NCBI GenBank assembly: GCA_038205245.1
Contig: JBBRCD010000003.1
Span: forward strand, 5,794-69,793
Origin: Burkholderiales bacterium
GTDB taxonomy: Bacteria > Pseudomonadota > Gammaproteobacteria > Burkholderiales > CAIKXV01
DNA: 64,000 nt
Reading direction: 5' to 3'
Positions 1 to 14,943 of the stretch are shown here, one piece after another; position 1 is the stretch's first letter; the number at the start of each line of letters is the position of its first letter. The notes under the pieces were generated by a model. That model searched no databases. It saw only the letters and a list, made by a program, of their open reading frames with translations, and was not told the DNA's origin. Both the position numbers and the translations under genes were made by a program.

Positions 1-1839
1 CAGGATACGACCCTGGAAATAGTTCATCTCGTAATCCTGTGCCGGCACCAGCTGGCGCCGCCCGATCACGATGCCGCTGTCGCGGTCGCGCACTTCCAGA
101 ACCAGCCGCTCCGAGCCGATCGTGATGTCCTGGTTGCGCAGGAAGTAGAGCGATCCGCCGGTACCCCGGAACTCTTCGCGCGACTGCACCGTGCCCGGCT
201 CGGCGGCAAAGCCGTCGATCGTGGTCCGCTTCTCGCCGAGCGCAGTGGTATCCGGGCTGTTGTAGAGCGCACGTGCGCCGTACAGCCCGCGATTGAATGC
301 GGTGAATTCGGTGCCGGTCATGCGGGTGAGAAAACTGCCCCACATCACATGCGAGTCCGCTCGCTCCAGCTTGACGAAGAACTTGCCCTGGGTCGGCGCA
401 TCGTCGATGGTGGTCGAGTCATCGCCATAGGTCGGATAGAACAGGTTCGCATCCAGCCGGCGCAGCAGGAAACGCGGATCCCGGCTGGAGAAGTTCGTGA
501 ACAGGTCGCGCAGCGGCTGCTCCCGCGTGTCGGCACTGGCGGTAAGCAGCGCGTCACCGAATACCCGCCCCTTGGCATAGAAGGCGAGCCGGCCATCGAT
601 GTAACTGGAGCGTGAGCCGTTGCTGCTGCCAGTCACCAGATCGGACGGGCCGGAAGTGTTGTTCATGCCCGCGGTGATATCGGCGATCGCCACATGGAAC
701 CAGTCGCGCGTCGGGATCGCGAGGTTGCGGGCGAAACTGAAGCCCTGGCCGGTGCGGTCCTGCACCGTCACCTCGACCGAATGCGCGCCGGTGGGCAGGA
801 TCTGCTGCATCGCGAAGCGGCCGTTGGCATCCACCGGCACCGAGATACCCATCGTGCTGACCGAGTCCCCCTGCGCCAGATTGCGCCCATTGATGGTCAC
901 CACACCGCCAGTGACCGGAATGTTGGACAGGTTAAGGTTGTTCTGGCCCCAGCCGGTCATGCGCTCGCGTGCGGCGCGCTGCTCGTCGCCGAGCGGGCGG
1001 GCGATGTCGGTGACGAACAGGCTCTTCGGCGCCGTCTCGTCGAAGCGGCCGCGCCGGTCGTAGACCCGCAGCACATAGCGAAGTTCGGTGCCGACCGGCG
1101 CATCCGGCCGCCAGTCGACAAAGCCGTTCGGCGGCACCACGATGATCGCAGCCGGAGTTTGCTGGATTGATTGACCCGGACTGAACACCCGTATCTCGGA
1201 GCGCATCAGCCAGAACTGATAGTTGCTGAAGGTGCCGAAGGTGACTGGCGCGCCACGCACCACGGTAGATGGCGCGGCCCATACGTTGAGGGCCGGGCGC
1301 GCCGCCAGCGAGTCGTACTGGATCTGTACGTCCACTGCGGCCAGCCGGCGGTCGACCCGGCGCTGGGCATCGGCCCCGCTGTCGCCGCGCGCCGACGGCG
1401 GCACCGATTGATCGACGACCTCCCCGTCCACCGTGATCCTGAACGGCACTGGTACCCGGGGCGACGGTGACGGCACGCTGCTGGCTGGCAACGCGTCGTT
1501 ACTGCTCGCCTCGGTGTTCGGCGGCACACCGCGCACGATCACCCGCGAGCGATCGGCCATGCTGCCACGTTCATCTTCGCGGCAGGCGCGCGCCACTCGC
1601 CCATCGGCGGTGACCTCATGACAGAGTTCGCAGCGAAGCGCGCTGTCGTCGATGGCGCATGCGGGTCCCTGCGCCGGTCCCTGCGCCGGTCCCTGCCCCT
1701 GAGCGAAGGCCCCGGGCAGATGGGCCAGGGCGAGCGCGACAGCAGCCGCGATCATCGAGTGGCGAGGGCCGCGCTCAGTGCTCGCAGGTCGCCCACTGCG
1801 ACCGCGGCTGTCGAACCGGAAGCGGGCCGAACGCATCAT
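1..1839 (-). CDS. Probable outer-membrane (beta-rich) partner of the DUF11 protein; partial, runs off the left edge
   Basis: Not in the ORF track because its stop lies outside the window. Manual translation from ATG 1839, which overlaps the upstream TGA as ATGA: signal-like segment MIAAAVALALAHLPGAFA-Q, then FRITVDGE, VDVQIQYDSL, YVLRVYD..GRFDET, DGRLAFYAKG, YPTYGDDST, GTGGSLYFLRNQDITIGSER, DYEMNYFQGRIL. I recognise these motifs from uncharacterised proteins that follow large DUF11 genes. Confidence 0.8.
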   Translation of the reverse strand, partial: MMRSARFRFDSRGRSGRPASTERGPRHSMIAAAVALALAHLPGAFAQGQGPAQGPAQGPACAIDDSALRCELCHEVTADGRVARACREDERGSMADRSRVIVRGVPPNTEASSNDALPASSVPSPSPRVPVPFRITVDGEVVDQSVPPSARGDSGADAQRRVDRRLAAVDVQIQYDSLAARPALNVWAAPSTVVRGAPVTFGTFSNYQFWLMRSEIRVFSPGQSIQQTPAAIIVVPPNGFVDWRPDAPVGTELRYVLRVYDRRGRFDETAPKSLFVTDIARPLGDEQRAARERMTGWGQNNLNLSNIPVTGGVVTINGRNLAQGDSVSTMGISVPVDANGRFAMQQILPTGAHSVEVTVQDRTGQGFSFARNLAIPTRDWFHVAIADITAGMNNTSGPSDLVTGSSNGSRSSYIDGRLAFYAKGRVFGDALLTASADTREQPLRDLFTNFSSRDPRFLLRRLDANLFYPTYGDDSTTIDDAPTQGKFFVKLERADSHVMWGSFLTRMTGTEFTAFNRGLYGARALYNSPDTTALGEKRTTIDGFAAEPGTVQSREEFRGTGGSLYFLRNQDITIGSERLVLEVRDRDSGIVIGRRQLVPAQDYEMNYFQGRIL

Positions 1840-4800
1840 CGGCCACCCCCCGCAATTTCTTCCTCGACCGTCAGCGCATAACAGCAGTTCTGCTTCGACC
1901 AGAGCTTGCGCATCAGATCGCTAAGCGCACGCACCCGGCGCTTGGCCCGGTCGCCATCGCCGGCGAGTGCAGGCGTGATCTGATAGGCGATACGCACCAC
2001 CGAGGTCTGGTCGCGGATGCGCGCCGGCAGCTCGTCGAACTTTGCCTGCCATTCCGACAGCAGGCGCTCGGTGCCGGCCTCGAACGCCTGCGCCGAGACC
2101 TCGACCCGCACCACACGCAACATCGCCGCGCCGAAATTCAGCTGAGCCATCCGGCCGCGCGTCATGCGCACCAGGCCCGGATTCTCGGTGGTCATGCGAA
2201 AGCCCGAGGGCAGCGTGCGCTCGTCGATCTTCAGAACGAAGTTCGCACCCCGCTCCTCGTTCGGCACATCGGCGCAGACGATGTGGTAACGGCCCTCGGC
2301 ATCGGTGGTCACCAACAGCCCGCGCGCGGTCGCGAGGCGCACATTCGGCAGGCCGGGCTCATCGGCGTCCTGGATGCCGTTGGCGTTGCGGTCGTTCCAC
2401 ACCTTGCCGATCAGGTCGGAACAGTCGAAGGTCGGATCGGGCACGATGCGCACCGCGGCGGTGGCGACGTTGGACGCCGCCGAGCCGGTCGTACCATTGA
2501 TCGCGACCACCTGGTTTACATACTCGCCCTCCTGCACGCCGGAACCGATCACCAGCACCATGCGGAAGATCCTGCGCTGCGCGGGCCCGAAACTCTGGTT
2601 GGGCCAGGTGAGCACGCGTCCGTTCACCTGCGGCTCGAGCGGCACCCCATCCAGGGTGGCCGAGCCGAGCCGGTAGCGGAACCCTGGCGGGATGGTGTCG
2701 ACCACGTTGATGCCGGACAGCGGCGCAGACAGCATGCTGGTGGCAGTGATCGTATAAGGCACCAGATCGCCGCGCGACACGTTGATCCTGGGCGTGGTCT
2801 TCACGATCACGATCGCCCCGCCCAACACCGGGTCGATCGGGATGTGGTTGTGGATCACGTTCGCGTTGCCCAGCCCGGTGAAGTTGAACCGGACGTAATA
2901 AGTGGTCGGCGCACCTGCGGCCGGGGGCCCGAAGTTGGCCTGGACCAGGAACGGATCGGGCGGCGTGTTCGGCACCTGCAGGCAGTTGGCGGCAATGCAG
3001 CCAGCGCTCGACGGTGAGGGCGGCAGAAGTGTCGACGGGGCGCCGGGCAGCCCGGTAAGGAAGCCGGGCGGCGTGGAAAAGCGCAGCGTATACACCCCGA
3101 ATGGCGCGCCACCGGCGAAGTTCACATCGAAGCGGTACATGCCGGCAGTGACACCGCTGTTGGCTGTCGTCTGCCCCTGCTGCCCAGGCAGCAGATGCGT
3201 CGCCGGATCGAACCCGGGCGGCCCGTCCAGGAACACCGGCACGCCACCGACCGGTTGCCGCGTGACCGCGTTGTAGATCACGCCGCTCGGATCGAGCGGC
3301 AGGTTCTGGTTGACCACGTTCGCGCCTGGCGCAAGCGTGAGGTTGCGGATCGTGCCATCGGCCAGACTGACACCCGCTTCTGTCGACTGCGCGCGGCCGA
3401 AGACCACGCCGGTGGCCGGATTGCGGAAGCGTATCTGGTAGCCGCTGCCCGGCGTCACCCCACGGAACACATAGTTGCCGGAACTGTCCGTCTGGGTGGT
3501 CGACAGCAGCGCGCCGTTGCGCAGCAGCTCCGCGATCCAGCCCGGCTGTGCCTGGTCCGGGCTGTCGAACACCCGGTTGCTGTTCAGATCGAGATAGACC
3601 AGCCCGGCCACGGTCGAACTGCCGGGCGCACCACCGATCACCACCCGGGTCGGATCGTCATCGTTCGGATTGGCGCCGTCGTTGCCGGTCTCGATGCCAT
3701 CGTCCAGGTCCGAGTCGGAACGCCCGCGCGCCGGCCCATCGCCAGCGCCCGCACCATCGGCCACGAAGAACGACTGGTTGTCGATCACCGTGCCGGTGGG
3801 TGCGGCCGGATTGATCGTCACCCGGAACCGGATCACATGGACCTGGCCGGGCAACAGCGAACCGATGCCCAGACCGCCGACCAGCGCAGACGCCCCGCCG
3901 GCATCGGCCACCGCGACCCCGTTGCTGTTGGTCGAGTTGGGCAGATACACCGTGTTCGCCGGCGGCAGCGCATCGGTGATCACCACGTTGGTGGCCGCGA
4001 CGCTGCCCAGGTTGCGGGTAACGATGACGTACTCCAGCACATCGCCCTGCTGCACCGAGCCGCCATTGAGATCGAGCACGCTCTTGGTCTGGCGCAGCAA
4101 CGGGCTGTTGCCGACCACGATGTCGGTGGGCTGGCTGCCGTTCGAAGGGTCGCCGTCACCGTCCGAACGTATCGGCGGCAACTGGTCCGAGGTGATCACG
4201 GCCTGGTTGGAGACGATCGGTCCGGCAGTCACCGTCACCCGGAACCGCAGCCGTACGCTCTGCCCGGCGGCCAGGCTGCCGACGTTGATGCTGACCGTGT
4301 TGCCGGCGGTCACCCCGAAGTCACCTGCGTCTGCGTCGGCGGCGTCGGTCAGCGTGCCCTCGGATCCGCCGACCGGGGTATAGCGCAGGCTGCCGGGAAG
4401 ATAGGTGGCGTTGACCGGAATCGGATCGGCAAGGCGCACATTGGTGGTCGACGCGCTGCCGCGATTGGTCAGCACGATGGTGTAAGTGAGGGTTTCGCCC
4501 ACCAGCAGGATGCCGCCGTTGTCGTCGACGACGGTCTTCTCACTTTCCAGCACCGGTGCGCCACCGACGAAGATGCGGGTCGGATCCGGCGCGGGCGGGG
4601 TGGTCGGGTCGTCGGACAACTGCGACACCGGCAGGCCACTGCCCTGCCCCTGACCGGACAGCGAGGCCTGATTCGAGATCGCGGTGCCCGGCACCACGTT
4701 CGCATTGACCCGAGTGCGGAAGGTGACCAGGGCGGGTGCGCCGCCGACGGTGAGTACGCCGCTGGGCTGGCCTGGCGTGTTGATTGCCAGGCCACCGGCG

Positions 4801-7800
4801 GCGAGCGGCGAGGTGCCGCCGACATCGGCCACCGCAGCGCCGTTCAGCGTCGTGGTCCCGGGCACATAGGTGGTGTTGGTCGGAATCGAATCGATCAGGC
4901 GCGAATTGATGATCGTCTCGCCGCTCGGGTTGCCGATCGCTATGGTCCAGGTGACCGTCTCGTTGGGCAGCAGCGTGTTGCCGTTGTCATCGACCACGGT
5001 CTTGGCCACCGACACGGTCTGGATCTGGGTCAGCACGGTGGAGCTGTTGTTGCCCGCACCAACGCGCCCGGGATCGTCCGGATCGGCCACCCCGACCGGG
5101 GTCACCACCTGCGCGCGGTTGCTGAGCACGCCGGATGCCGGAGCATTGCCGGTGATGGTGAAGGTGACCGCACCCCCGGCGGGAAGGGTGGCGATCGTAC
5201 TGGTGACGTTCTGGCCAGCCACACCGACCGCGCCGCATACCGCGCCGCCGAGCTCACCACCACAGAGCGCGCTGGTGATCACTACCCCGGTCGGCACCGG
5301 ATCGCTGAACAGCGCGCCGTTGGCCGCACTCGGGCCGAGGTTGGTGATCACGATCGAGTAGACCAGGGCGCCGCCGGGAGACACGGTCGCCGGCCCGGCC
5401 TTCACCGCCCGCAGGTTCGCCACCGGCGTCGGCGTGACCGTGGCAGTCGCCTCATCGTTCTCCAGCGGTCGGGACGGCGAGAAGTTGTTCGGTGTCGAGT
5501 TCGGGTCGAACTGGTCGCTCGCGGTGACCTGCGCCACGTTCAGATACGAGCCGGACGGGTTGACCCGCGCCACCAGCGACAGCGTGGCCGAATTGCCTGC
5601 CAGCAGTGTGCCCACCGTCCATACGCCAGTGGCCGGGTTGAATCCTCCCTGGCCGGGTGCCGCAGACACAAAGGTGTAGCCAGCGGGCAGCTGATCGCCG
5701 ACCCGGACACCGGACGCCCCATCCGGTCCGTTGTTGGTGACGACGATGGTGAAGGTGACGTTGCTGCCCACCGGCGGGGTCGCGTTGCTCACCACCTTGG
5801 TCAGGGACAGGTCGGCCACGCCCTGCGGTACGGTGACCTGCGCGGTGTTGTTGGACAGGTTCGGATCGAATTCGGTCGCCGATACGGTGCCAACGTTGGT
5901 GATCGTCGGTGGCGCGCCCGCCCGGCTGACCGAAATCACCAGCGTCGCCGATGCACCGTTGGCGACGGTGCCGACTGTCCACTGCCCGCTGGCCGGGTTG
6001 TACGAGCCCTGAGTGGCCGAGACCACCGCGTTGAAGGTGAGGCCAGCCGGCAGCGGATCGTTGACCAGCACCCCGGTCGCGGTATTCGGCCCGGCATTGG
6101 TGACGGTCAACGTGTAGTTGTACGGCACTCCGGGCAGCGGGTTCGGATTGCTCGATGCCTTGGCCATCGCCAGATCAGCAGCTGCACGCACCGGGGTGAT
6201 CGCGGTCGCAGACGGGGTGTTGACCGCGCCGCCACCCGAGGCCTGCGCGGTGTTGATCACCTGAGGCACTGCCGCGGCAGTGACGTTCACGGTGAGCGTG
6301 ATCGCATTGCCACTGCCACCGGCCGCGATCACGGTGCTGCTGCTGCAGGTGACTGCCTGGCCGACCGCGCCGCACGCCCATCCGCTGCCGGTTGCCGACA
6401 CGAAGGTGAGGCCTGCGGGCAGGGTATCGGTGACACTCAGCGTACCCACGGTGGCAAAGCCGCCGCTGTTGCTGACCGTGATCGTATAGGTCGCCTGGGC
6501 GCCGGCAGTGAACTCGGCGCTGCCGGCGACCTTGGCGATGGCGAGCGTGGTCGGCGTCAGCACCGTCAGCGGCGCAGAAAAGCCAGCCTGCGAATTTGCC
6601 AGTGGCTCGTCGCTGCTGGTGATGCCACCGGCCGGCACCGTGTTGGTGTAGGTTCCCGCCAGCGGTGCGGTGACGTTGACCCGCACGATGCACGACCCGC
6701 TGGCCGGGATCGTTGCCCCGGACAGGGTGAAGCTGGCCGCGCCAGCCAGCGCAGTCACGCTGCCCCCGGCGCAGGTGGTCGTTGCCGCCGGCAGCGCAGC
6801 CACGACCATCTGCGCCGGCAATGCCGGCAGGTTGTCGGTGACGCTGGTCCCGGTGACCGCGAAGCCGTTGACGTTGTTGAGGGTCAGCGTGAGCTGCGAC
6901 ACCCCGCCGGCGGGTGTCGGATTCGGATTGAACACCTTTACGCCAGTCATCGGCCGAACCACGACCGTTGGCGCGGTGGCGCTGTTGTTGCCCGGCGTCG
7001 GATCCGGGTTGAAGCCGCTGGTCACAGCGGCGGTGTTGATCACGTTCTGGGCAGCGGCGGCAGTCGCGGTGGCCACGATGGTGAGGGTGACCAGGTTGGT
7101 CCCGACCGGCAGCTCGTTGCCGGCGGTCGAAGGAATCACGCAGCTGACCACCTGCCCTGCCGCAGTACAGACCCCGTTGCCGGTGACACCGACGAACGTG
7201 CCCGAGACAAAGGTGAATCCGGCCGGCAACGTGTCGGTGACGGTGACCGAGCGCGCCGCGCCCGGGCCGGCGTTGGACACCTGCAGCGTGTAGGTGGCGT
7301 TTCCACCGACTGCGACCCGCGGCGCGCCAGTCTTGGTGATCGACAGGTCGGCACCCACCCTCGAGGTGGCATCGCGCGACACGCTGTTGTTGGCGGTGTT
7401 CGGGTCGGGAGTATTCGAGCTCGCAGTGGCGGTGTTGGTCTCGGTACCGAGGCCATTGGCAAGCAGCCGATAGGTGACCGTCGCGATCTGTCCGACCTGC
7501 AGGTCGCCGAAGTCGCAGGTCACACTGTTCGGCCCGGGATTGAATGTGCAGGTGCCGGCGGTGGTCGAGAGCGAACCGACGACGAAGGTGAACACGCCAG
7601 CGGCCGGTGGCAGTGCATCGAGTACCGCGCCGTTGCTGGCGCGCGAGGGGCCGTTGTTGGTCACCCGCACGGTGAAGGTGGTTTGCTGCCCCTGTGCCAC
7701 CGGGTCCGGACTGACCGTCTTGTTCACCACCAGGTCGGCGCTTCCCGGCGTGATCGTGTTGTCGACAGTCGCCGTGTTGTTGCTCGCGTCCGGGTCGGTC

Positions 7801-10634
7801 GCGCCGGTCACCACCTCGGCGGTTGCGGAATTGGTGATCGTGATGTTGGTGACGCCGTTGTTCACCGGGAACACGCGGATCACCGCGGTCTGCTGCACAT
7901 TGGCCGCGATCGACGCCCAGGTGCAGGTGACCTGGGTCACTGGTGGAGCATTGGTCGTGCAGACGCCCCCGCCGCTCACCGACTGGATCGAACCGAACAC
8001 CACCTGCGCCGGCAACGTGTCGACGAAACGCACCTGGCCGGAGGCCACGCCGTTGACCGGCGCATTGTTGTTGCGGATGGTGAGTGTGTAGTCGAGCGGC
8101 AGTCCGGCCTGCAGTGTGCCCGGCGGGTTGGCGGTCTTGGCGAGCTGCAGATCAACCGCAGCCTCGATCTGCGTGTTGATCGTGGCCGAGTTGTCGTTGA
8201 GGTTCGGGTCGCCGACATCGGGCGAGATCACGCTGGCGGTGTTCGGTCGGGTTGCCGGAAACGGCCCGTTGTCGCGCGCCCGGATACGCACCGTGATCAC
8301 CGTCTGCGGCGCGCCGCTGGCGATCGTGCCCAGCGGACAGGTGAGGCGCCCGGTGCCACTGTTGAACGAGCAGGCCGGTCCCGCGGGCAACACGGTGGCA
8401 TCGATGAAGCTCGCGTTCAGCAGATCATCGGTGACGCTCACATTGGTTGCGGCGTTCGGGCCGAGATTGTCCACACGCAGGGTGTAGGTGAGGATTGCGC
8501 CCCACTGGGTGGTGCCGCTGTCGGACTTGAGGATGCGCAGGTCGGCCAGGGTCGCGGTGCGAGTGAGCGTGGTCGCGCCGCACCCGGTGGTGCCGGCAAT
8601 GCCGCCGCCCGAGACGGCGGTACAGGCACTGTTGGTGATCGCGTCCGGCCCGACACCGAGCGCTTGCACCACTGCCGTGTACTCGATCGCCGGGAAGTCC
8701 GCACCCGGCCCGAACGGCGCGCCCAGCGTGCGGGTGCAGGTCAGCGTGCGAGTGGGCGCATCGACGCTGCATGACCAGCCAGGTGACAGCACTACAGTTG
8801 GCGCGCTAAGCGAGGCAGGCAGGGTGTCGGTGACCGTCACCGTCGCCCCGGTGGGAATCGGCACATTACCGTTCGCGCGCGGGGTCACCCGATAGCGCAC
8901 GGTGGTGCCGACACCCACGACGCTGGTCGGTGGCGCCGGAATCAGCACCGACTTGCCGGTCGTCATGTTGTTGTTCTGTGCTGCCGCACCGCCGTTGGTG
9001 AAGGTGGAACTGTCGTTCGCCGGATTCGAATCGATCAGCACGCCACCGATCTTGGACACGGTTGCAGTGTTGGTGATGGTCGCGTTGTCGGTCGCGGTCA
9101 CCCGAAGCGTGATGTCCGGCAGCGTGGTCGCCGGGCTGCCGACCACTGCGGCCGGATGCTCGCAGGTGAGCGTCGGCGCGGCGAACACGCATGACCAGGG
9201 CGCGGCCGCGGTCACCGACACGAAGGCGAGATTCGCGGGCAGCGTGTCGACCACCCGGATCAGGCCGTCGGTCGTGGACGGGCCGTTGTTGCGGGCGCGC
9301 AGCATGAAGTTGAACGGCACGCCGACCACCACCGAACCCGGGCCGGTCTTGTCGATCGACAGGTCGGTCCCGGCCGCCTGCACTGTCACCGACTGGGAGG
9401 CGGTGTTGTTCGACAGGTCGGGGTCCGGAGTGGCCGAAGCGATGGTCGCGCTGTTCGGCTGGACGCCGACGCCGGTGGCGGTGGTCTGGTAGCTGATCGC
9501 CGGCAGCGCGCCGGTGCCGACCGGACCCGGGCGGGTACAGGTCAACGTCGGCGCGCTGAACGAACAGGCCCACCCGGCGCCACTCGCCGAGCCGCCGACA
9601 AAGGTCAGGCCGGCCGGGATCGTATCGGTGACCGTGATCGGGCCCGCCGCCGGAGACGGTCCGAAGTTGGACGGGTTCAACGTCCAGTTGACCGCGCTGC
9701 CCTGGGGGACCGGGCTCGGCGTGCCCGTCTTGGCGATGCGCATGTCCGCGCCCGGCTGGATCGGCGTGGTCAGATTGAAGTTGTTGTTGACCGGTACCGG
9801 GTCCGAGGTCACCGTCGACTGGATGTTTGCGCCGTTGGTGATGTTGCCGTCGACCTGGGGCCGGATCTGCACGGTAAACGTCGGCGTGGTCGCACCGACC
9901 GCGAGCGGCCCGGGCCGGTCGCAGGTGAGAATCCCCGGCGCCCCCCCGTTGTGCGAACAGGTCCAGCCGTTCTCGGTGTAATTCGCGGCGCCTGCGTAGA
10001 CCGAGCCCACCGGCAGTGTCTCCAGCACCCGTATCGTTCCCGCAGCCGGGAACGGCCCGGCATTGCTGCCACTGACTGTGTAAGACAGCACCGCGCCGGC
10101 AATGAACGGGCCCGCCCCGACGGTTGCCTTGGTCACCGACAGATCGGCACCGACGGTGACCGTCGTCTGCTCGGTTCGATTCGTGTTGTTGACCGGGTTG
10201 GGATCGACCTGCGCCGCGGTGGCGGTCGAGGTGTTGGTGATCACGTTGCCCTGACCGACGATGTCGGCGGCATTGTCCGGCCGCGCGTTGAACACCACGT
10301 CCAGCGTGTCAGCGAGACCGACCGCCGGGAACCCGGAACAGGTGTAGGTGCGCGGCGGCGTGGTCAGCGCGCAGCTGACCCCGGGCGGCGTGGTGATCGA
10401 TACCAGACTCGTGCCCAACGGAAGGGTGTTCACCAGCGACACGCTGGTCGCCGGATCGGGACCGTTGTTGGTGATGCGCACCGTGTAGGCGACGACCGCT
10501 CCGGCAATCACCGGATCCGGGTTGTCCGACACCTGGACGATCAGGTCGGCCTGGGCGAGTGCCTGCCCGGCCGCGCCGAGCAGGCCGAGGCAGAGCAGCA
10601 GCGCGTGCAGAAAACGGCGCAAGCGAACGCTCAT
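1836..10634 (-). CDS. Giant secreted DUF11-repeat fibrillar adhesin-like protein with SdrD-B-like domains (~2,930 aa)
   Basis: Likely start MSVRLRRFLHALLLCLGLLGAAGQALA-Q (Sec signal). About 17-18 repeats of ADLxxxK...YTxxVxNxGP..A..VxVxDxLP...NTAxV...DPxxxNN. The C-terminal region has GxVxxDxNxNG SdrD-B-like domains and a short alpha/beta tail. Confidence 0.9.
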   Translation of the reverse strand: MSVRLRRFLHALLLCLGLLGAAGQALAQADLIVQVSDNPDPVIAGAVVAYTVRITNNGPDPATSVSLVNTLPLGTSLVSITTPPGVSCALTTPPRTYTCSGFPAVGLADTLDVVFNARPDNAADIVGQGNVITNTSTATAAQVDPNPVNNTNRTEQTTVTVGADLSVTKATVGAGPFIAGAVLSYTVSGSNAGPFPAAGTIRVLETLPVGSVYAGAANYTENGWTCSHNGGAPGILTCDRPGPLAVGATTPTFTVQIRPQVDGNITNGANIQSTVTSDPVPVNNNFNLTTPIQPGADMRIAKTGTPSPVPQGSAVNWTLNPSNFGPSPAAGPITVTDTIPAGLTFVGGSASGAGWACSFSAPTLTCTRPGPVGTGALPAISYQTTATGVGVQPNSATIASATPDPDLSNNTASQSVTVQAAGTDLSIDKTGPGSVVVGVPFNFMLRARNNGPSTTDGLIRVVDTLPANLAFVSVTAAAPWSCVFAAPTLTCEHPAAVVGSPATTLPDITLRVTATDNATITNTATVSKIGGVLIDSNPANDSSTFTNGGAAAQNNNMTTGKSVLIPAPPTSVVGVGTTVRYRVTPRANGNVPIPTGATVTVTDTLPASLSAPTVVLSPGWSCSVDAPTRTLTCTRTLGAPFGPGADFPAIEYTAVVQALGVGPDAITNSACTAVSGGGIAGTTGCGATTLTRTATLADLRILKSDSGTTQWGAILTYTLRVDNLGPNAATNVSVTDDLLNASFIDATVLPAGPACSFNSGTGRLTCPLGTIASGAPQTVITVRIRARDNGPFPATRPNTASVISPDVGDPNLNDNSATINTQIEAAVDLQLAKTANPPGTLQAGLPLDYTLTIRNNNAPVNGVASGQVRFVDTLPAQVVFGSIQSVSGGGVCTTNAPPVTQVTCTWASIAANVQQTAVIRVFPVNNGVTNITITNSATAEVVTGATDPDASNNTATVDNTITPGSADLVVNKTVSPDPVAQGQQTTFTVRVTNNGPSRASNGAVLDALPPAAGVFTFVVGSLSTTAGTCTFNPGPNSVTCDFGDLQVGQIATVTYRLLANGLGTETNTATASSNTPDPNTANNSVSRDATSRVGADLSITKTGAPRVAVGGNATYTLQVSNAGPGAARSVTVTDTLPAGFTFVSGTFVGVTGNGVCTAAGQVVSCVIPSTAGNELPVGTNLVTLTIVATATAAAAQNVINTAAVTSGFNPDPTPGNNSATAPTVVVRPMTGVKVFNPNPTPAGGVSQLTLTLNNVNGFAVTGTSVTDNLPALPAQMVVAALPAATTTCAGGSVTALAGAASFTLSGATIPASGSCIVRVNVTAPLAGTYTNTVPAGGITSSDEPLANSQAGFSAPLTVLTPTTLAIAKVAGSAEFTAGAQATYTITVSNSGGFATVGTLSVTDTLPAGLTFVSATGSGWACGAVGQAVTCSSSTVIAAGGSGNAITLTVNVTAAAVPQVINTAQASGGGAVNTPSATAITPVRAAADLAMAKASSNPNPLPGVPYNYTLTVTNAGPNTATGVLVNDPLPAGLTFNAVVSATQGSYNPASGQWTVGTVANGASATLVISVSRAGAPPTITNVGTVSATEFDPNLSNNTAQVTVPQGVADLSLTKVVSNATPPVGSNVTFTIVVTNNGPDGASGVRVGDQLPAGYTFVSAAPGQGGFNPATGVWTVGTLLAGNSATLSLVARVNPSGSYLNVAQVTASDQFDPNSTPNNFSPSRPLENDEATATVTPTPVANLRAVKAGPATVSPGGALVYSIVITNLGPSAANGALFSDPVPTGVVITSALCGGELGGAVCGAVGVAGQNVTSTIATLPAGGAVTFTITGNAPASGVLSNRAQVVTPVGVADPDDPGRVGAGNNSSTVLTQIQTVSVAKTVVDDNGNTLLPNETVTWTIAIGNPSGETIINSRLIDSIPTNTTYVPGTTTLNGAAVADVGGTSPLAAGGLAINTPGQPSGVLTVGGAPALVTFRTRVNANVVPGTAISNQASLSGQGQGSGLPVSQLSDDPTTPPAPDPTRIFVGGAPVLESEKTVVDDNGGILLVGETLTYTIVLTNRGSASTTNVRLADPIPVNATYLPGSLRYTPVGGSEGTLTDAADADAGDFGVTAGNTVSINVGSLAAGQSVRLRFRVTVTAGPIVSNQAVITSDQLPPIRSDGDGDPSNGSQPTDIVVGNSPLLRQTKSVLDLNGGSVQQGDVLEYVIVTRNLGSVAATNVVITDALPPANTVYLPNSTNSNGVAVADAGGASALVGGLGIGSLLPGQVHVIRFRVTINPAAPTGTVIDNQSFFVADGAGAGDGPARGRSDSDLDDGIETGNDGANPNDDDPTRVVIGGAPGSSTVAGLVYLDLNSNRVFDSPDQAQPGWIAELLRNGALLSTTQTDSSGNYVFRGVTPGSGYQIRFRNPATGVVFGRAQSTEAGVSLADGTIRNLTLAPGANVVNQNLPLDPSGVIYNAVTRQPVGGVPVFLDGPPGFDPATHLLPGQQGQTTANSGVTAGMYRFDVNFAGGAPFGVYTLRFSTPPGFLTGLPGAPSTLLPPSPSSAGCIAANCLQVPNTPPDPFLVQANFGPPAAGAPTTYYVRFNFTGLGNANVIHNHIPIDPVLGGAIVIVKTTPRINVSRGDLVPYTITATSMLSAPLSGINVVDTIPPGFRYRLGSATLDGVPLEPQVNGRVLTWPNQSFGPAQRRIFRMVLVIGSGVQEGEYVNQVVAINGTTGSAASNVATAAVRIVPDPTFDCSDLIGKVWNDRNANGIQDADEPGLPNVRLATARGLLVTTDAEGRYHIVCADVPNEERGANFVLKIDERTLPSGFRMTTENPGLVRMTRGRMAQLNFGAAMLRVVRVEVSAQAFEAGTERLLSEWQAKFDELPARIRDQTSVVRIAYQITPALAGDGDRAKRRVRALSDLMRKLWSKQNCCYALTVEEEIAGGGR

Positions 10635-10914
10635 CTGCACTGACACCCCGAACCTTTGCGCGTGGTGGCACCGACCGACCGACATATTCGATTCAGCAAA
10701 GCAAGACCCTGGTCGTCAACGCGCGCACCTGATATAAGCCCCGCCCAACTGCAACCGTCCAGCGATCGCACCCGGTGTGCACCCTGCAGGCAGATCCGCA
10801 GGCACATCACAACATAGGAAACATCCACCAACCGCGGACGAGTCTAGTGCAGACCGGCACGCAGCGTCGCGCAATAGTTGGCAGGCGATCCAGTGAAACC
10901 TGCGCAGCAAGGCG

Positions 10915-11979
10915 TCACCGATACAGCCCCTGCTTCGACAACCAGTCCTGGATCAGTTGCGCGATCTCGCCGTTATTGCGGTCCATCATCATCATGTGCG
11001 AGTTGCCCCGGATACCGGTCTTGGGCAGATCCACCACCTCGTAGCGCGCGCCGGCGCGCCCGGCAGCTTCGAGAAACTTCACGCCGTTGGCGCGAATGGT
11101 CGGCCAGCGTGCATCCTGCTCGATGTAGTCGCCATAGACCGCGAGCATCGGTACGTCCTTGAGTCGCTCGACCTGTTTCGGGTCACCGACCCCGGCTGGC
11201 TCGACCAGGACCAGCGCGCGCACCAGATCGGGACGCGCCTGCGCAACACGGAAGCCGAACTGACCCGCCTGCGAATGCACCAGCACCACACACGGACAGA
11301 CCTTCTCCACCAGTTGCAGATAGGCGGCGATGGTCGGCGCATCGGTGGTGGTCCAGCGCGGCACAATCTGCCGGGTGAAGTTCATGTAGCCGTCGATCAC
11401 CGGGAACTGGTTGCCCGGCAGCACCTTCGCCCGGGACAGGTCGCGATTGAACGACTTCTCTCCGGTGCCGATGCGGAAGCGCTCGAACGGATTGTCGATG
11501 GTCAGAAACACCGGGTCGCCAGGCAGGATGTCCGGAAACATCGCCCAGCCGGCACGGCCGCGCTCGACTGCGTCCGAGTTGTAGACCGACCAGCCGCGGC
11601 GCAGGAACCAGTTCAGCCAGCCCTCGCGCCCGTCGGGCGTGGTCTCGTAGGTCACCCCGCTCAGCCCGCCGCCATGCCACATCAGGATCGGCACCGCGCC
11701 GCGCCGATTGGCCGGAATGAAGTACTGCACATACATCTGCTCGACCTGATAGATGCCGTTCGGGTCGACCCTGGCCGGTACACCGCCCGGGGTGAACAGC
11801 ACTTCTTTCACCGGCCGGCCCTTTATTTCGACTTCCCGCCCGCCGATATGAAAGGAACCCATGTCCTGCAGCGCGAACGGCGCCTGGGACGCGCAACCGG
11901 CCACCAGCAGTATCGATGCAGCGCTGCCGAGCCGCGCAACGATGCGCGCAACCGATGTCCAACCATTGACGATCGACAT
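10915..11979 (-). CDS. Alpha/beta-hydrolase (esterase-like) lipoprotein
   Basis: GAGGAGG RBS before ATG 11979; lipobox LLVAGC; HGGG oxyanion motif, VHSQAG nucleophile elbow, GNSHMMM catalytic His. Confidence 0.8.
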   Translation of the reverse strand: MSIVNGWTSVARIVARLGSAASILLVAGCASQAPFALQDMGSFHIGGREVEIKGRPVKEVLFTPGGVPARVDPNGIYQVEQMYVQYFIPANRRGAVPILMWHGGGLSGVTYETTPDGREGWLNWFLRRGWSVYNSDAVERGRAGWAMFPDILPGDPVFLTIDNPFERFRIGTGEKSFNRDLSRAKVLPGNQFPVIDGYMNFTRQIVPRWTTTDAPTIAAYLQLVEKVCPCVVLVHSQAGQFGFRVAQARPDLVRALVLVEPAGVGDPKQVERLKDVPMLAVYGDYIEQDARWPTIRANGVKFLEAAGRAGARYEVVDLPKTGIRGNSHMMMMDRNNGEIAQLIQDWLSKQGLYR

Positions 11980-12078
11980 GAAACCTCCTCCGCCCTTCGG
12001 GCTGTTTAGTTGTTGTTGTCTGCCTGCATCCTGCGGTGTGACCCTGCGCGGGGTAATCGGACACCCCGGGAGCAGAGC

Positions 12079-12825
12079 ATGATCGGTCTGACCATCCCGC
12101 TCATCTTCATTCTGGCGATCGCGCTGGCCGTGGTCTACGCCTTGTGGCAACAGGCGAAACGCCAAGCCTTCATCCGCGAGACGCTGCTGCCGCGCGGGCT
12201 GCTCGACTCGTTTATCCTGCCATTTTCCGAACTCGCGCTCAAGGACCGGCAACTGGTGGCGCGCGGGCTGCGCAAGTTCTTTCTGGCATGGGTCAGGGCC
12301 GGAAAACAGCCGGTCGCGATGCGCTCCCGCGTGGTGGATGCGCTATGGCTCGCGTTCTCCCGACAGCAAACCGGGTACGCGCGCTACTGCAGGCAGGCGC
12401 TCGGCCGCACGCTGCCGCTGACACCGACCGTCGCCCTGAGCCAGGCCCCGGAGACCAACGCTGCGCTTCGGCGGTGCTGGTGGCATGCCTGCCGCGAAGA
12501 GAACATCGACCCGCGCAAGCCGACACGGCCGCCGCTGCTGTTCGCCCTGGATACCAAGCTCAAGATCCGCGACGGCGTCTACTACTTCACCGACGACTTC
12601 GCCCGCAGGCGCAAGGTCGAGCGTTCCGACGACAGCGGAAACGGCAGCAGCGTGTCGTACGACAGCGAGCGAAGCTGGACGCCAGAGGACCTGCAAGCCG
12701 CCAAGCTTGGCGAGGTCGACCGGGTCCAGGCCGGCGAACACCGGCACCGCTGCCAGCGCCTGCGCCGCGGCTATCGGCTCCTGTCCGTCATTCATCCATC
12801 CGTTCGTTCGTTCGATCGGCGGTAG
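12079..12825 (+). CDS. Conserved hypothetical membrane-anchored protein (glycine-rich-domain-protein-like)
   Basis: N-terminal TM helix; family-like motifs LVARGLRKFF, MRSRVVDALW, LRRCWWHACREENIDPRKPTRPPLLFALDTKL. Confidence 0.6.
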   Translation: MIGLTIPLIFILAIALAVVYALWQQAKRQAFIRETLLPRGLLDSFILPFSELALKDRQLVARGLRKFFLAWVRAGKQPVAMRSRVVDALWLAFSRQQTGYARYCRQALGRTLPLTPTVALSQAPETNAALRRCWWHACREENIDPRKPTRPPLLFALDTKLKIRDGVYYFTDDFARRRKVERSDDSGNGSSVSYDSERSWTPEDLQAAKLGEVDRVQAGEHRHRCQRLRRGYRLLSVIHPSVRSFDRR

Positions 12826-12849
12826 CCAACCCTGCTCACAAGGACCGCA

Positions 12850-13827
12850 TCAATCGACTCGCAGGCCGAGATCCTTCACCACCCGGGACCACTTGACCCG
12901 CTCGCTTCGGATGAACGCCACGAACGCCTCGGGCGTGCTGCCCACCGGCTCCATGCCATCGCGCAGCATGCGCTCGCGCAGCTCCGGCGTCTTCAGCGCC
13001 TTGGCCACCTCGCCCTGCACCCGGTTGACGATCTCACGTGGCGTCGCGGCCGGGGCGGCAAGGCCGTTGAACGAGACCGACTCGAACCCGGGAAAACCGC
13101 TCTCGGCGATGGTCGGCAGATCCGGCAGGGTCTGAAAGCGCTGGGCGCTGGTGATCGCCAGCGCGCGCAACTTGCCGGCGTTGACCTGCGGCATCGAACT
13201 GACCACCTGGTCGAACATCAGGATCACATTGCCGGCCACCAGGTCCTGGATCGCCTGCGGGCTGCCCTTGTACGGCACATGCACCATCTTCAGTCCGCTG
13301 GCGGCGTTGAACAGCTCGGCAGTCATGTGGGTACCCCCGCCGATGCCGGAGGAGGCGAAGGTGAGATCGCCTGGGCGCTTCCGCGCGATGGCGACCAGTT
13401 CCTTGAGGGTGCGAGCCGGTAATGCCGGGTTGGCCACCAGCACCAGCGGCAGGCCGCCGAGCTGGGTGATCGGGGCGAAATCGCGCTCCGGGTCGTAGGC
13501 CAGCACCTTGTACAGATACTGGTTGATCGACATCACGCCGGTAGTGGCAAGCAGCAGCGTGTAGCCGTCCGGGGGCGCCTTCGCCACCAGCTCGGCACCG
13601 ATATTGCCACCGGCCCCGGCCCGGTTGTCTATCGCGAACGACTGACCGATCTGTTCGGTGAGCCGCTGGCCGATCACCCGCGCGGTGACATCGGTCGAAC
13701 CGCCCGGAGAAAACGGCACCACGATGCGGACCGGTTTTACCGGCCAGGCCGGTGCTGGCTGGGCGGCCGCTCCGGCGGACACCAGAACCGCAATCGCGGC
13801 CGACACAATGCGAAACGGAAGCGTCAT
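12850..13827 (-). CDS. Bug/TctC tripartite tricarboxylate transporter substrate-binding protein
   Basis: Signal peptide; WPVKPVRIVVPFSPGGSTD, NRAGAGGNIG, PPDGYTLL, HVPYKG. Confidence 0.93.
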   Translation of the reverse strand: MTLPFRIVSAAIAVLVSAGAAAQPAPAWPVKPVRIVVPFSPGGSTDVTARVIGQRLTEQIGQSFAIDNRAGAGGNIGAELVAKAPPDGYTLLLATTGVMSINQYLYKVLAYDPERDFAPITQLGGLPLVLVANPALPARTLKELVAIARKRPGDLTFASSGIGGGTHMTAELFNAASGLKMVHVPYKGSPQAIQDLVAGNVILMFDQVVSSMPQVNAGKLRALAITSAQRFQTLPDLPTIAESGFPGFESVSFNGLAAPAATPREIVNRVQGEVAKALKTPELRERMLRDGMEPVGSTPEAFVAFIRSERVKWSRVVKDLGLRVD

Positions 13828-13866
13828 TACAGGCTGCCTTTCTGATTTTCGCTGCGGGTGGTCCAT

Positions 13867-14943
13867 CTACTGGCGTACCGTCCATGGACGAAAGAAGTCG
13901 ACCCGGTCGATCGAACTGACCAGCGCGTCGAGCACCAGGCGACCGCGCAGCACACGCAGCTTTATCTTGCTGCCCGCCGGTCCGGCCGCCCACAGCTTCT
14001 CGTAGAACTCGCGCGGCGTGGCCACCGGCTCGGCCGACACTGCGATGATCACATCGCCCTCACGGATGCCCACGCGCTGCGCTGGCGAACGCTCCATCAC
14101 ATGGGCGACCACCACCTTGTGCTCGTGCTCGGCGGTGTAAACGCCCAGCCAGGGACGCGCCGGCGCCGGGTCGCGGCCATGGGCGATCAGATCGGCCAGC
14201 AGCGGCTTGAGCAGATCGATCGGCACGAACATGTTTCCCGGCAGCGCGGTGCCCTGGTCGAGGGCATCGCCGACCCAGAGCGATGCGACACCGACCAGTC
14301 GCCCGGTCGCATCGACCAGGGCCGCGCCGCTGTGTTCGGAACGGCCGGGCACGGTGAACAACGCCTCGGCGAGCATGTACTCCCAGTAGCCGACGAACGG
14401 CCGGCGCGACACCACAGTAGCGGCGCTGGCGCCACCTGCAGCCTCGTGTGCGACGAAAAACAGCGGCTGCATCTCGCGCACCGCAGACGACTCACCCAGA
14501 CTGAGCGGCTGGTCGGTCACCGGCCCGCTGGCACGCAGCAGTCCGAAGCCGGTCGCATGATCGAAGCCGACCACGGTCGCCGAGAGGATCCGGTTGTCAT
14601 GCGTGATCACCAGCACCGACTGTGCCTCGATGATCAGGTAGCCGATGGTGACGATCAGCGTCCCGTCAGCGCCCACCAGATCGCCGGCGTCGATCGCGAT
14701 GCCGGTGCCCTCGCGTTCGGTACCCAGGGTCTGCCCGGTGCGTGCATCATCTATCGTACGCACACTGAGCTTGACGACGGCACGCGCCACCGGCGCGGGA
14801 AATGCGCGTGTCGCCGTCGGATCGTTCGCTGCGCGCCACGCAGCCAGACTGGCGAGGAACAGCGGCACGCTGACCGGTGGCGCCAGGGGCAGCGCGGGCA
14901 GGGGGATCGATTCCCCGCCAGTGGAGTTGGATGCGTTCTGCAC
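13867..14943 (-). CDS. S1C (HtrA-like) trypsin-fold protein with a PDZ domain
   Basis: GTGIAID..IVTIGYLI, HSGAALVD..GRLVGV; C-terminal PDZ (PWLGV..SPAQRVGIREGDVII). Start uncertain. Confidence 0.8.
   Translation of the reverse strand: MQNASNSTGGESIPLPALPLAPPVSVPLFLASLAAWRAANDPTATRAFPAPVARAVVKLSVRTIDDARTGQTLGTEREGTGIAIDAGDLVGADGTLIVTIGYLIIEAQSVLVITHDNRILSATVVGFDHATGFGLLRASGPVTDQPLSLGESSAVREMQPLFFVAHEAAGGASAATVVSRRPFVGYWEYMLAEALFTVPGRSEHSGAALVDATGRLVGVASLWVGDALDQGTALPGNMFVPIDLLKPLLADLIAHGRDPAPARPWLGVYTAEHEHKVVVAHVMERSPAQRVGIREGDVIIAVSAEPVATPREFYEKLWAAGPAGSKIKLRVLRGRLVLDALVSSIDRVDFFRPWTVRQ

Follow-up and report, generated by a model that had tools for sequence, protein, structure and literature searches.

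A giant CLIPPER/DUF11 adhesin and a predicted giant outer-membrane barrel encoded by overlapping genes: a candidate export and anchoring pair in a Burkholderiales bacterium

Type I and type V secretion are the usual assignments for the fibrillar adhesins of Gram-negative bacteria. The question addressed here is how CLIPPER/DUF11 fibres with neither signature reach the cell surface and hold on to it, studied through a gene pair of a Burkholderiales bacterium (GenBank assembly GCA_038205245.1, contig JBBRCD010000003.1). The window, i.e., the whole stretch of 64,000 nucleotides (nt) that was analysed, corresponds to positions 5,794 to 69,793 of the contig (G000:C3:5794-69793 in the assembly) and carries near its first base, on the minus strand, a giant fibrillar adhesin gene and, downstream of it, the gene of a partner protein. 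We suggest that the partner is a very large outer-membrane beta-barrel that would serve as both conduit and anchor of the adhesin fibre, with the stalk displayed and the C-terminal module lying in or under the barrel. We regard this reading as somewhat probable, counting for it the gene overlap, the predicted barrel, the near-obligate adjacency of the two genes, the colinear natural fusions and the signal for a periplasmic adhesin C-terminus. The features of the pair, in window positions, are as follows.

1836..10685, minus strand: giant fibrillar adhesin gene, 2,949 amino acids (aa), P0001 (open reading frame list and translation).
10554..10634, minus strand: Sec-type signal peptide of the adhesin, aa 18-44, ending ...GQALA before QA (judged by eye from the translation).
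3786..10553, minus strand: variable stalk of ~17-18 Ig-like CLIPPER/DUF11-type domains, aa 45-2300 (Pfam, NCBIfam, motif and cysteine positions).
1839..3485, minus strand: conserved C-terminal module of the adhesin, aa 2401-2949, with SdrD_B-type, CLIPPER-type and SdrD_B-type sandwiches and a terminal alpha/beta domain (alignment and AlphaFold2, AF2).
1851..2117, minus strand: terminal beta-alpha-beta-alpha-beta domain of the adhesin, aa 2857-2945 (DSSP of the AF2 model).
1836..1839, minus strand: ATGA stop/start overlap of the adhesin and partner genes (sequence read directly).
1..1839, minus strand: first 613 codons of the partner gene, open to the window edge (open reading frame list and translation).
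1702..1839, minus strand: N-terminus of the partner, signal-peptide-like stretch aa 1-46, ending ...LPGAFA before QG (judged by eye from the translation).
700..1452, minus strand: N-terminal beta-rich domains of the partner, aa 130-380 (BLASTP to the homologue P0122 from aa 131; conserved in homologues).
1..702, minus strand: start of the predicted giant beta-barrel, aa 380-613 of 380-1410 (AF2; the rest lies beyond the window).

An initial annotation, made from the letters of the window alone, had described a ~2,930-aa Sec-signal protein with 17-18 DUF11-type Ig repeats and two SdrD-B-like domains, whose stop overlaps (ATGA) the start of a second signal-peptide gene of more than 613 codons. 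This description is confirmed throughout. The adhesin likely starts at the internal Met18 (nt 10634), giving ~2,932 aa and agreeing with the end coordinate 10634 of that description, and Met18 is followed by a classic signal peptide, MSVRLRRFLHALLLCLGLLGAAGQALA before QA, as judged by eye from the translation. The overlap was seen directly in the sequence ...GGC CGA TGA / ATG ATG CGT (…CGATGATGCGT…), with the adhesin TGA over the partner ATG. The partner frame is open for 613 codons in the window, and the assembly contig provides the full gene of 1,410 aa (P0003; 4,233 nt, L002 3400..7632), ending at G000:C3:3400. The motifs DGRLAFYAKG, YPTYGDDST and GTGGSLYFLR, cited earlier as beta-strand-like, were all found in the partner translation.

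The Pfam scan of the adhesin detected 11 families at E<=0.01, among them DUF11 in 14 stretches (E 1.9e-235), DUF7933 in three, DUF7927 in one and SdrD_B in the two stretches expected, and NCBIfam detected the DUF11-type repeat in 15 stretches and the isopeptide-forming fimbrial domain in five. Together with the ~130 aa motif spacing these counts give ~20 Ig-like domains, close to the number first proposed. Most stalk domains contain a closely spaced cysteine pair, according to motif and cysteine positions, the two cysteines lying 8-14 residues apart in 12 of 14 pairs (the others are given as 26 and 13-14). CLIPPER is the new name given to DUF11 in a preprint (10.1101/2025.04.25.650565), which also demonstrates a Lys-Asn isopeptide bond in it. 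With a stalk of tandem DUF11 (PF01345) CnaA-like domains in a long signal-peptide protein, the adhesin is a CLIPPER/DUF11 fibrillar adhesin, a class assigned because of the 14 DUF11 stretches, the five isopeptide-forming domains of NCBIfam and the fold match of the tail to 9ifr described below, the isopeptide bonds being predicted.

The pair is kept together across genomes. A search with the barrel alignment, one genome per species, gave at least 600 stretches, 590 of them confirmed; 80 loci were kept and scored by tblastn with pieces of both proteins. We detected the last 130 aa of the adhesin directly upstream of the barrel gene, in the same orientation, in 65 of the 80 loci; of the 15 others, 14 have their barrel gene cut off by the end of the contig. 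Among the loci with upstream DNA, the pair is kept in 65 of 66, as two frames, mostly overlapping or abutting, in 64 and as one fused frame in a single locus (L067). The initial annotation had called for a survey of co-occurrence and fusion, which thus returned a near-obligate adjacency of adhesin and barrel, with genuine fusions besides. The remaining locus, of Stutzerimonas stutzeri A563/77 (L069, 9974-10933), contains the last ~320 aa of the barrel gene alone without an upstream tail and is apparently a remnant. The variable stalk, by tblastn, has weak or no matches among the related loci.

Carriers of the pair were detected in Beta-, Gamma- and Alphaproteobacteria, Syntrophaceae, Geobacterales, Desulfuromonadales, Nitrospiraceae and Mesoterricola, among others, the cultured ones including Herbaspirillum, Polaromonas, Methylobacillus, Microbulbifer, Rivihabitans, Herminiimonas and Stutzerimonas stutzeri. 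Barrel and tail profiles were also searched (E<=1e-20) against 300 genomes sampled evenly from the class: the barrel was detected in 35, the tail in 30 and both in 28, mostly on the same contig and a few kb apart. The tail-only genomes were G215, with a fragment at a contig end, and G296; the seven barrel-only genomes have weak partial matches, in frames of ~2,000 aa that belong to a distant fused branch. Microbulbifer sediminum carries two adhesin-barrel pairs on one contig, ~16 kb apart (L074/L075).

Natural fusions provide the order of the parts. Among the 150 best cluster representatives of the partner family, 32 exceed 2,000 aa, reaching up to 6,889, and eight of these were inspected. All eight are colinear, tail then partner, with DUF11 N-terminal to the barrel in 8/8 and SdrD_B likewise in 7/8. 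The last ~550 aa of the adhesin align fully or nearly so (to tail residue 530-545) in six of the eight; the fusion P0157 is without the terminal alpha/beta part, and P0187 aligns over tail residues 225-464 alone. No hydrophobic signal-peptide stretch was detected at the junctions of the eight inspected fusions, indicating true fusions rather than frameshift artefacts. In P0176 and P0168 tandem OmpA-type repeats, three counted at the junction, stand between tail and barrel, and Pfam names OmpA in both. In a fused chain with such repeats the OmpA domains have to lie in the periplasm, with the barrel in the outer membrane; a stalk outside the cell would then mean that the chain crosses this membrane a single time, just ahead of the periplasmic domains.

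A distant single-chain branch is represented, in the stretch L083 (G284:C20:135000-150000) 2331-14362, minus strand, by a 2,070-aa protein with SdrD_B, DUF11, CarboxypepD_reg, OmpA and barrel regions. Flanking it are two genes, of 912 and 1,002 aa, either product having a single DUF11 domain at its end, and a like arrangement follows a 5,018-aa fused giant in L084. These DUF11-ended neighbours may be add-on subunits.

The initial annotation had inferred that the partner is a dedicated barrel, a view to be given up if it had no membrane beta-barrel or belonged to a known TpsB/TonB-receptor family. A membrane beta-barrel is predicted with good confidence, and the partner falls in none of the TpsB, Omp85 and TonB-receptor families. 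AF2, run on partner aa 380-1410 (the last 1,031 aa) with a 70-sequence alignment, gave pTM 0.79 and a mean pLDDT of 78.7, low confidence being limited to model residues 79-90, 494-591, 604-623 and 890-900; the fold matches are barrels, 50 of 56 homologues end in an aromatic residue (the partner itself ends ...VNAVSVW), and no Pfam or NCBIfam model reached its cut-off. The model is all-beta with long antiparallel strands except for a disordered loop, preceded by ~27 strands, some of them short, and followed by 22 long ones. All 44 listed of the 241 PDB matches found by Foldseek at E<=1e-3 are outer-membrane barrels at TM 0.1-0.2, including Cir, BtuB, LptD, SlpA, MtrB and FimD, and, apart from a few local domain matches, every fold match listed in any of the searches is a barrel of the outer membrane (or of an organelle). 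LptD, MtrB and SlpA were rejected as specific relatives, being merely generic barrel matches (TM<=0.21). A barrel profile searched against PDB sequences gave a single match at chance level (E 0.33), and SprA is not among the fold matches listed, which by itself does not exclude a similarity.

In VIA-align the alignments of many 12-18-strand porins start at model residue 1 and end at 1031; the TamA barrel crosses the loop (376..821), and SlpA aligns over 108..822 with 437 residues. The spanning porins and the crossing of the loop by TamA suggest that the N- and C-terminal strands lie in one sheet and that the two halves are continuous. The loop itself, 144 residues rich in P/Q/S/T (aa ~873-1009, L002 ~4606-5016, minus strand, outside the window), is replaced by a turn of at most 17 residues in 42 of 56 homologues, and by strand parity it would face the periplasm. 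Because of the porin, TamA and SlpA alignments and the short loop of most homologues, we predict one closed outer-membrane barrel of ~38-42 strands, a count estimated from the DSSP string rather than measured.

The top structural match of the barrel model was the FimD usher (9fxb_D; Z 14.1, rmsd 9.0, 306 residues aligned; Z 12.1 in another search), just ~2 Z units over plain porins. The model also contains a small inserted beta-sandwich within residues ~110-390, locally matching phage tail domains (8ck1_B; Z 8.2, rmsd 2.5, 74 aligned). Model residues 51-250 (aa 430-630, window ~1-550, minus strand) are second in conservation to the last 31 residues alone, and the conserved sandwich region contains the motif YP.YGDDST..DAPTQGKF and several invariant Gly, Asp and Arg residues, making it a candidate plug or adhesin-binding site.

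The partner belongs to a giant-barrel family for which no published name was found, in which a barrel region of ~1,000 aa can be aligned end to end and the gene is directly downstream of, or fused to, a tail-module protein. At E<=1e-3 the family includes 799 proteins among the candidates scored and 2,928 cluster representatives, 854 of the latter at E<=1e-30; named members are labelled 'OmpA family protein', 'flagellar motor protein MotB' or 'hypothetical'. The partner shares 47% identity with its Herbaspirillum homologue P0122, from aa 131 to the last residue (1,315 alignment columns). The ESM Atlas does not contain the exact sequence of the partner; for P0122 it lists no structure, and the clusters are all labelled 'OmpA/MotB family' or 'hypothetical'. 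Pfam at E<=1 gave four sub-cut-off matches for the partner, namely NtrZ (26.6 bits), Glucodextran_B (a Glucodextran_B-like match at aa 313-365), OMP_b-brl (E 0.13) and DUF7840; NtrZ was rejected as the identity of the partner and taken as noise.

Our analysis corrects the initial description of the partner in one respect: the peptidoglycan-binding OmpA domain PF00691 was detected in 94 of the 120 best partner matches, near the N-terminus (aa ~95-220) and preceding the beta-rich region, and this copy does not carry it (no PF00691 match at E<=1 in Pfam). The domain is also absent from the five closest cluster representatives. An OmpA-less partner and a long disordered barrel loop are what this copy contributes. 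At the OmpA position the partner has a low-complexity stretch (aa 47-130, window 1450-1700, minus strand) with four cysteines (61, 70, 73 and 86; CxxC). A 'CC' doublet occurs near the adhesin C-terminus (aa 2934-2935, window 1881-1886, minus strand); a covalent tether from it to the partner Cys 61/70/73/86 was considered and rejected, the doublet being present in 21 of 65 loci with no association with cysteines of the partner N-region.

The retained part of the adhesin would be its conserved C-terminal module. The last ~550 aa share 39-58% identity with 50 upstream open reading frames of related loci, and AF2 of aa 2401-2949 (mean pLDDT 86.2) gave several beta-sandwiches and a final alpha/beta unit. 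The sandwiches match Gram-positive pilins (BcpA, EbpB, SpaD) and SdrD in the fold search, and the CLIPPER-type domain matches 9ifr (Z 12.8, rmsd 2.8, 117 of 123 residues aligned, 21% identity). The invariant cysteine pair of the conserved SdrD_B domain is 49 residues apart, and this spacing, set beside the mostly close pairs of the stalk, was counted as a constraint on threading. The short C-terminal alpha/beta tail noticed in the initial annotation is present in the model, with the correction that it resembles a degenerate OmpA-like domain. The terminal unit compared with the OmpA domain of the partner homologues gave an hhalign probability of 60% (E 8.8e-5), and of the 10 matches (E<=10) that a profile of 48 tails had among PDB sequences, the top six are PomB/Omp38 OmpA-like domains (E 0.018-0.19), aligned at beta1-alpha1-beta2. 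These weak but concordant matches suggest a divergent or degenerate OmpA/MotB-like domain and, because the tail matches such domains, the adhesin C-terminus is probably periplasmic.

Based on these data the following route can be proposed. Both proteins would reach the periplasm via Sec, and the partner would insert in the outer membrane as a single very large barrel of ~38-42 strands, the inserted conserved beta-sandwich perhaps acting as a plug and the N-terminal beta domains lying on the periplasmic side. The variable CLIPPER/DUF11 stalk would then pass outward through the barrel, and the C-terminal ~550 residues of the adhesin, i.e., three or four beta-sandwich domains and the degenerate OmpA-like domain, would stay in or under it, holding the fibre on the cell with the OmpA-like end in the periplasm. 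We infer the location of the stalk outside the cell, its route through the partner barrel rather than another path, and the role of the C-terminal module as a retained stopper or anchor.

Several points weigh against the barrel being both conduit and anchor. An N-terminal signal combined with a retained C-terminus needs N-terminus-first or hairpin threading, for which we know of no type V precedent, and no energy source for export of the stalk is evident. The strand count and barrel closure come from a predicted model, the tail matches OmpA-like domains weakly (best E 0.018, probability 60%), and a tie to peptidoglycan is less clear in this organism, the partner being without the OmpA domain of most relatives. 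In a search of sequencing runs the locus was found in 19 DNA metagenome runs and in no RNA run.

The conserved pairing and the fusions indicate physical association, not transport, and they would also fit a barrel that is an outer-membrane docking platform only, the adhesin being exported by a general route elsewhere, e.g., the type II secretion system (T2SS), and then binding barrel loops or periplasmic domains. The wall-binding OmpA domain of most of the best partner matches (94 of 120) is typical of anchors. However, the fused chain has its stalk N-terminal to the periplasmic OmpA domains and the barrel, so that the chain would cross the outer membrane beside or inside its own barrel, and ~1,000 barrel residues far exceed the needs of an anchor; docking alone seems unlikely to us. 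OmpA-like domains on both proteins in most relatives, and disulphide pairs suited to periplasmic folding, could also point to an undisplayed fibre that braces the envelope, tying the outer membrane (barrel) to the wall (OmpA-like domains). We estimate that ~20 tandem Ig-like domains would span several periplasm widths, and the variable stalk and conserved tail among relatives are as expected of an exposed fibre; CLIPPER/DUF11 stalks are, moreover, described as surface fibrillar adhesins in the available part of the source (bioRxiv 10.1101/2025.04.25.650565), leaving a periplasmic brace quite improbable.

The FimD match and the usher plug-like inserted sandwich raise a further reading, an assembly pore that polymerises or exports several subunits as FimD does, the giant protein being the first or basal subunit; the genes ending in one DUF11 domain beside the distant ~2,000-aa fused branch would fit it as well. 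But the 4.79-Mb genome has 15 DUF11 matches, every one of them in the adhesin gene, so that additional subunits are not apparent, and the Z score of FimD exceeds that of plain porins by ~2 with no usher or chaperone Pfam family matched, so that we give usher-like assembly little credence. Porins are also among the best fold matches, as they would be if the partner were a solute channel merely sharing the operon with the adhesin. This explanation is disfavoured to the point of being hardly credible, considering the pair kept in 65 of 66 loci, the recurrent fusions, colinear in 8/8 inspected, and the barrel present in 28 of 30 tail-positive genomes. The barrel as both conduit and anchor remains the reading we prefer.

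The defining features of type Va, Vb and Ve secretion, of TonB-dependent receptors and of type I secretion system (T1SS) adhesins are not found in the pair. The initial annotation had recognised no RTX, autotransporter, two-partner secretion (TPS) or POTRA family, and none was detected in the Pfam scans (adhesin E<=0.01, partner E<=1), the scope of the Pfam statements that follow. For type Va there is no 12-stranded autotransporter domain (PF03797) in the adhesin, which ends alpha/beta; for type Vb, no POTRA/Omp85/ShlB match in the partner and no TPS domain in the adhesin; for type Ve, no IAT_beta match in either protein, and the order in the fusions, passenger then barrel, is opposite to that of Ve. 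The partner matched neither PF07715 nor PF00593 of TonB-dependent receptors in Pfam and NCBIfam, and the TM of Cir/BtuB is just 0.16. The adhesin has no HemolysinCabind match of T1SS RTX adhesins, a Sec-type signal peptide is present and the neighbours are metabolic. For chaperone-usher systems, PF00577 was not matched in the partner and no chaperone or pilin genes lie alongside, FimD still being the top structural match.

The logic of the pair is nevertheless similar to type V, with a dedicated barrel for one large Sec-exported passenger, both split and fused versions, and mostly closely spaced stalk cysteines; the fused forms have the passenger N-terminal to the barrel as in type Va, and a periplasmic wall-binding domain stands by the barrel as in type Ve (LysM in Ve, OmpA in the partner family). 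In contrast to the 12 (Va, Ve) or 16 (Vb) strands of type V, the partner barrel has ~1,000 residues and a predicted ~40 strands, the stalk is of isopeptide-type CnaA/CnaB-like domains, and the retained end would be a C-terminal multi-domain module of the adhesin with an OmpA-like domain. We set the pathway apart from type V because the partner barrel family is unrelated and much larger, though the logic is type V-like.

FimD/PapC ushers resemble the partner in being large barrels with an inserted beta-sandwich, which in ushers pass folded Ig-like units, and they differ in having 24 strands vs ~40 estimated here. SprA of the type IX secretion system (T9SS) is likewise a very large single-chain outer-membrane barrel able to pass folded domains; there is no sequence family match to it, the host is proteobacterial, not Bacteroidota, and the adhesin has no Por_Secre_tail. 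LapA-type T1SS adhesins are giant repeat adhesins held at the surface by a terminal module unable to pass the outer-membrane channel, whereas the adhesin described here has a Sec signal peptide and no RTX/T1SS signal, and no ATP-binding cassette (ABC), membrane fusion protein (MFP) or TolC genes are near the pair. B9T28_05395 of Acinetobacter silvestris (PDB 9IFR) also has a CLIPPER/DUF11 stalk with an 'OmpA-like anchoring domain' that is cell-proximal; in the available part of its description (10.1101/2025.04.25.650565) it is a single 2,129-aa chain for which only the OmpA-like anchor is named, with no barrel or partner gene described, and 'outer membrane' occurs 0 times in the text.

An aldehyde dehydrogenase gene follows the partner gene, and upstream of the adhesin there are an open reading frame without a Pfam family and genes for TctC-family binding proteins, a trypsin-PDZ protease, FAA (fumarylacetoacetate) hydrolase, pyruvate dehydrogenase E1 and an Lrp/AsnC regulator. 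No T1SS, T2SS, TPS or other secretion genes were detected among these flanking genes, which are metabolic or transport-related, and no promoter or terminator signal exceeded that of shuffled sequences in scans of the regions around both gene ends. TctC-family genes stand on both sides of the DegP-type trypsin-like/PDZ periplasmic protease gene (window 13870-14943, minus strand), which is 3 kb upstream of the adhesin; no link of this protease to the adhesin-barrel module is shown.

A full-text literature search, supplements not covered, turned up no paper that describes the pair or its barrel family; 'DUF11' text matches in a paper on the type XI secretion system (T11SS) are DUF1194. In the available part of one preprint, SprA is stated to be the largest known barrel, a single chain of 36 strands, and barrel surveys of the AlphaFold database (AFDB) omit proteins of more than 1,280 residues (bioRxiv 10.64898/2026.03.07.710327). 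Most members of the partner family exceed this length, and the size class predicted for the partner barrel is so far known solely from the T9SS translocon.

Taken together, the data allow a wider proposal that we put forward tentatively, as less probable than not in its full form: a new outer-membrane secretion-and-anchoring pathway, in which a single-chain barrel of ~40 strands, at least as large as SprA (36), would pass a folded, isopeptide-locked fibre N-terminus first and retain it by a C-terminal module with an OmpA-like periplasmic stopper, an usher-like sandwich gating the pore. Such a pathway would be widespread among Pseudomonadota, with further occurrences in Desulfobacterota-type lineages, Nitrospirota and Acidobacteriota. 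The cultured non-pathogenic carriers (Methylobacillus, Herbaspirillum, Polaromonas, Microbulbifer) make the question directly testable. If the proposal is true, it would add one more secretion/anchoring type and widen the size range of outer-membrane barrels, raising the question of how the barrel assembly machinery (BAM) assembles such barrels, and the 'OmpA family' and 'MotB' labels on the named members of the family would need correction.

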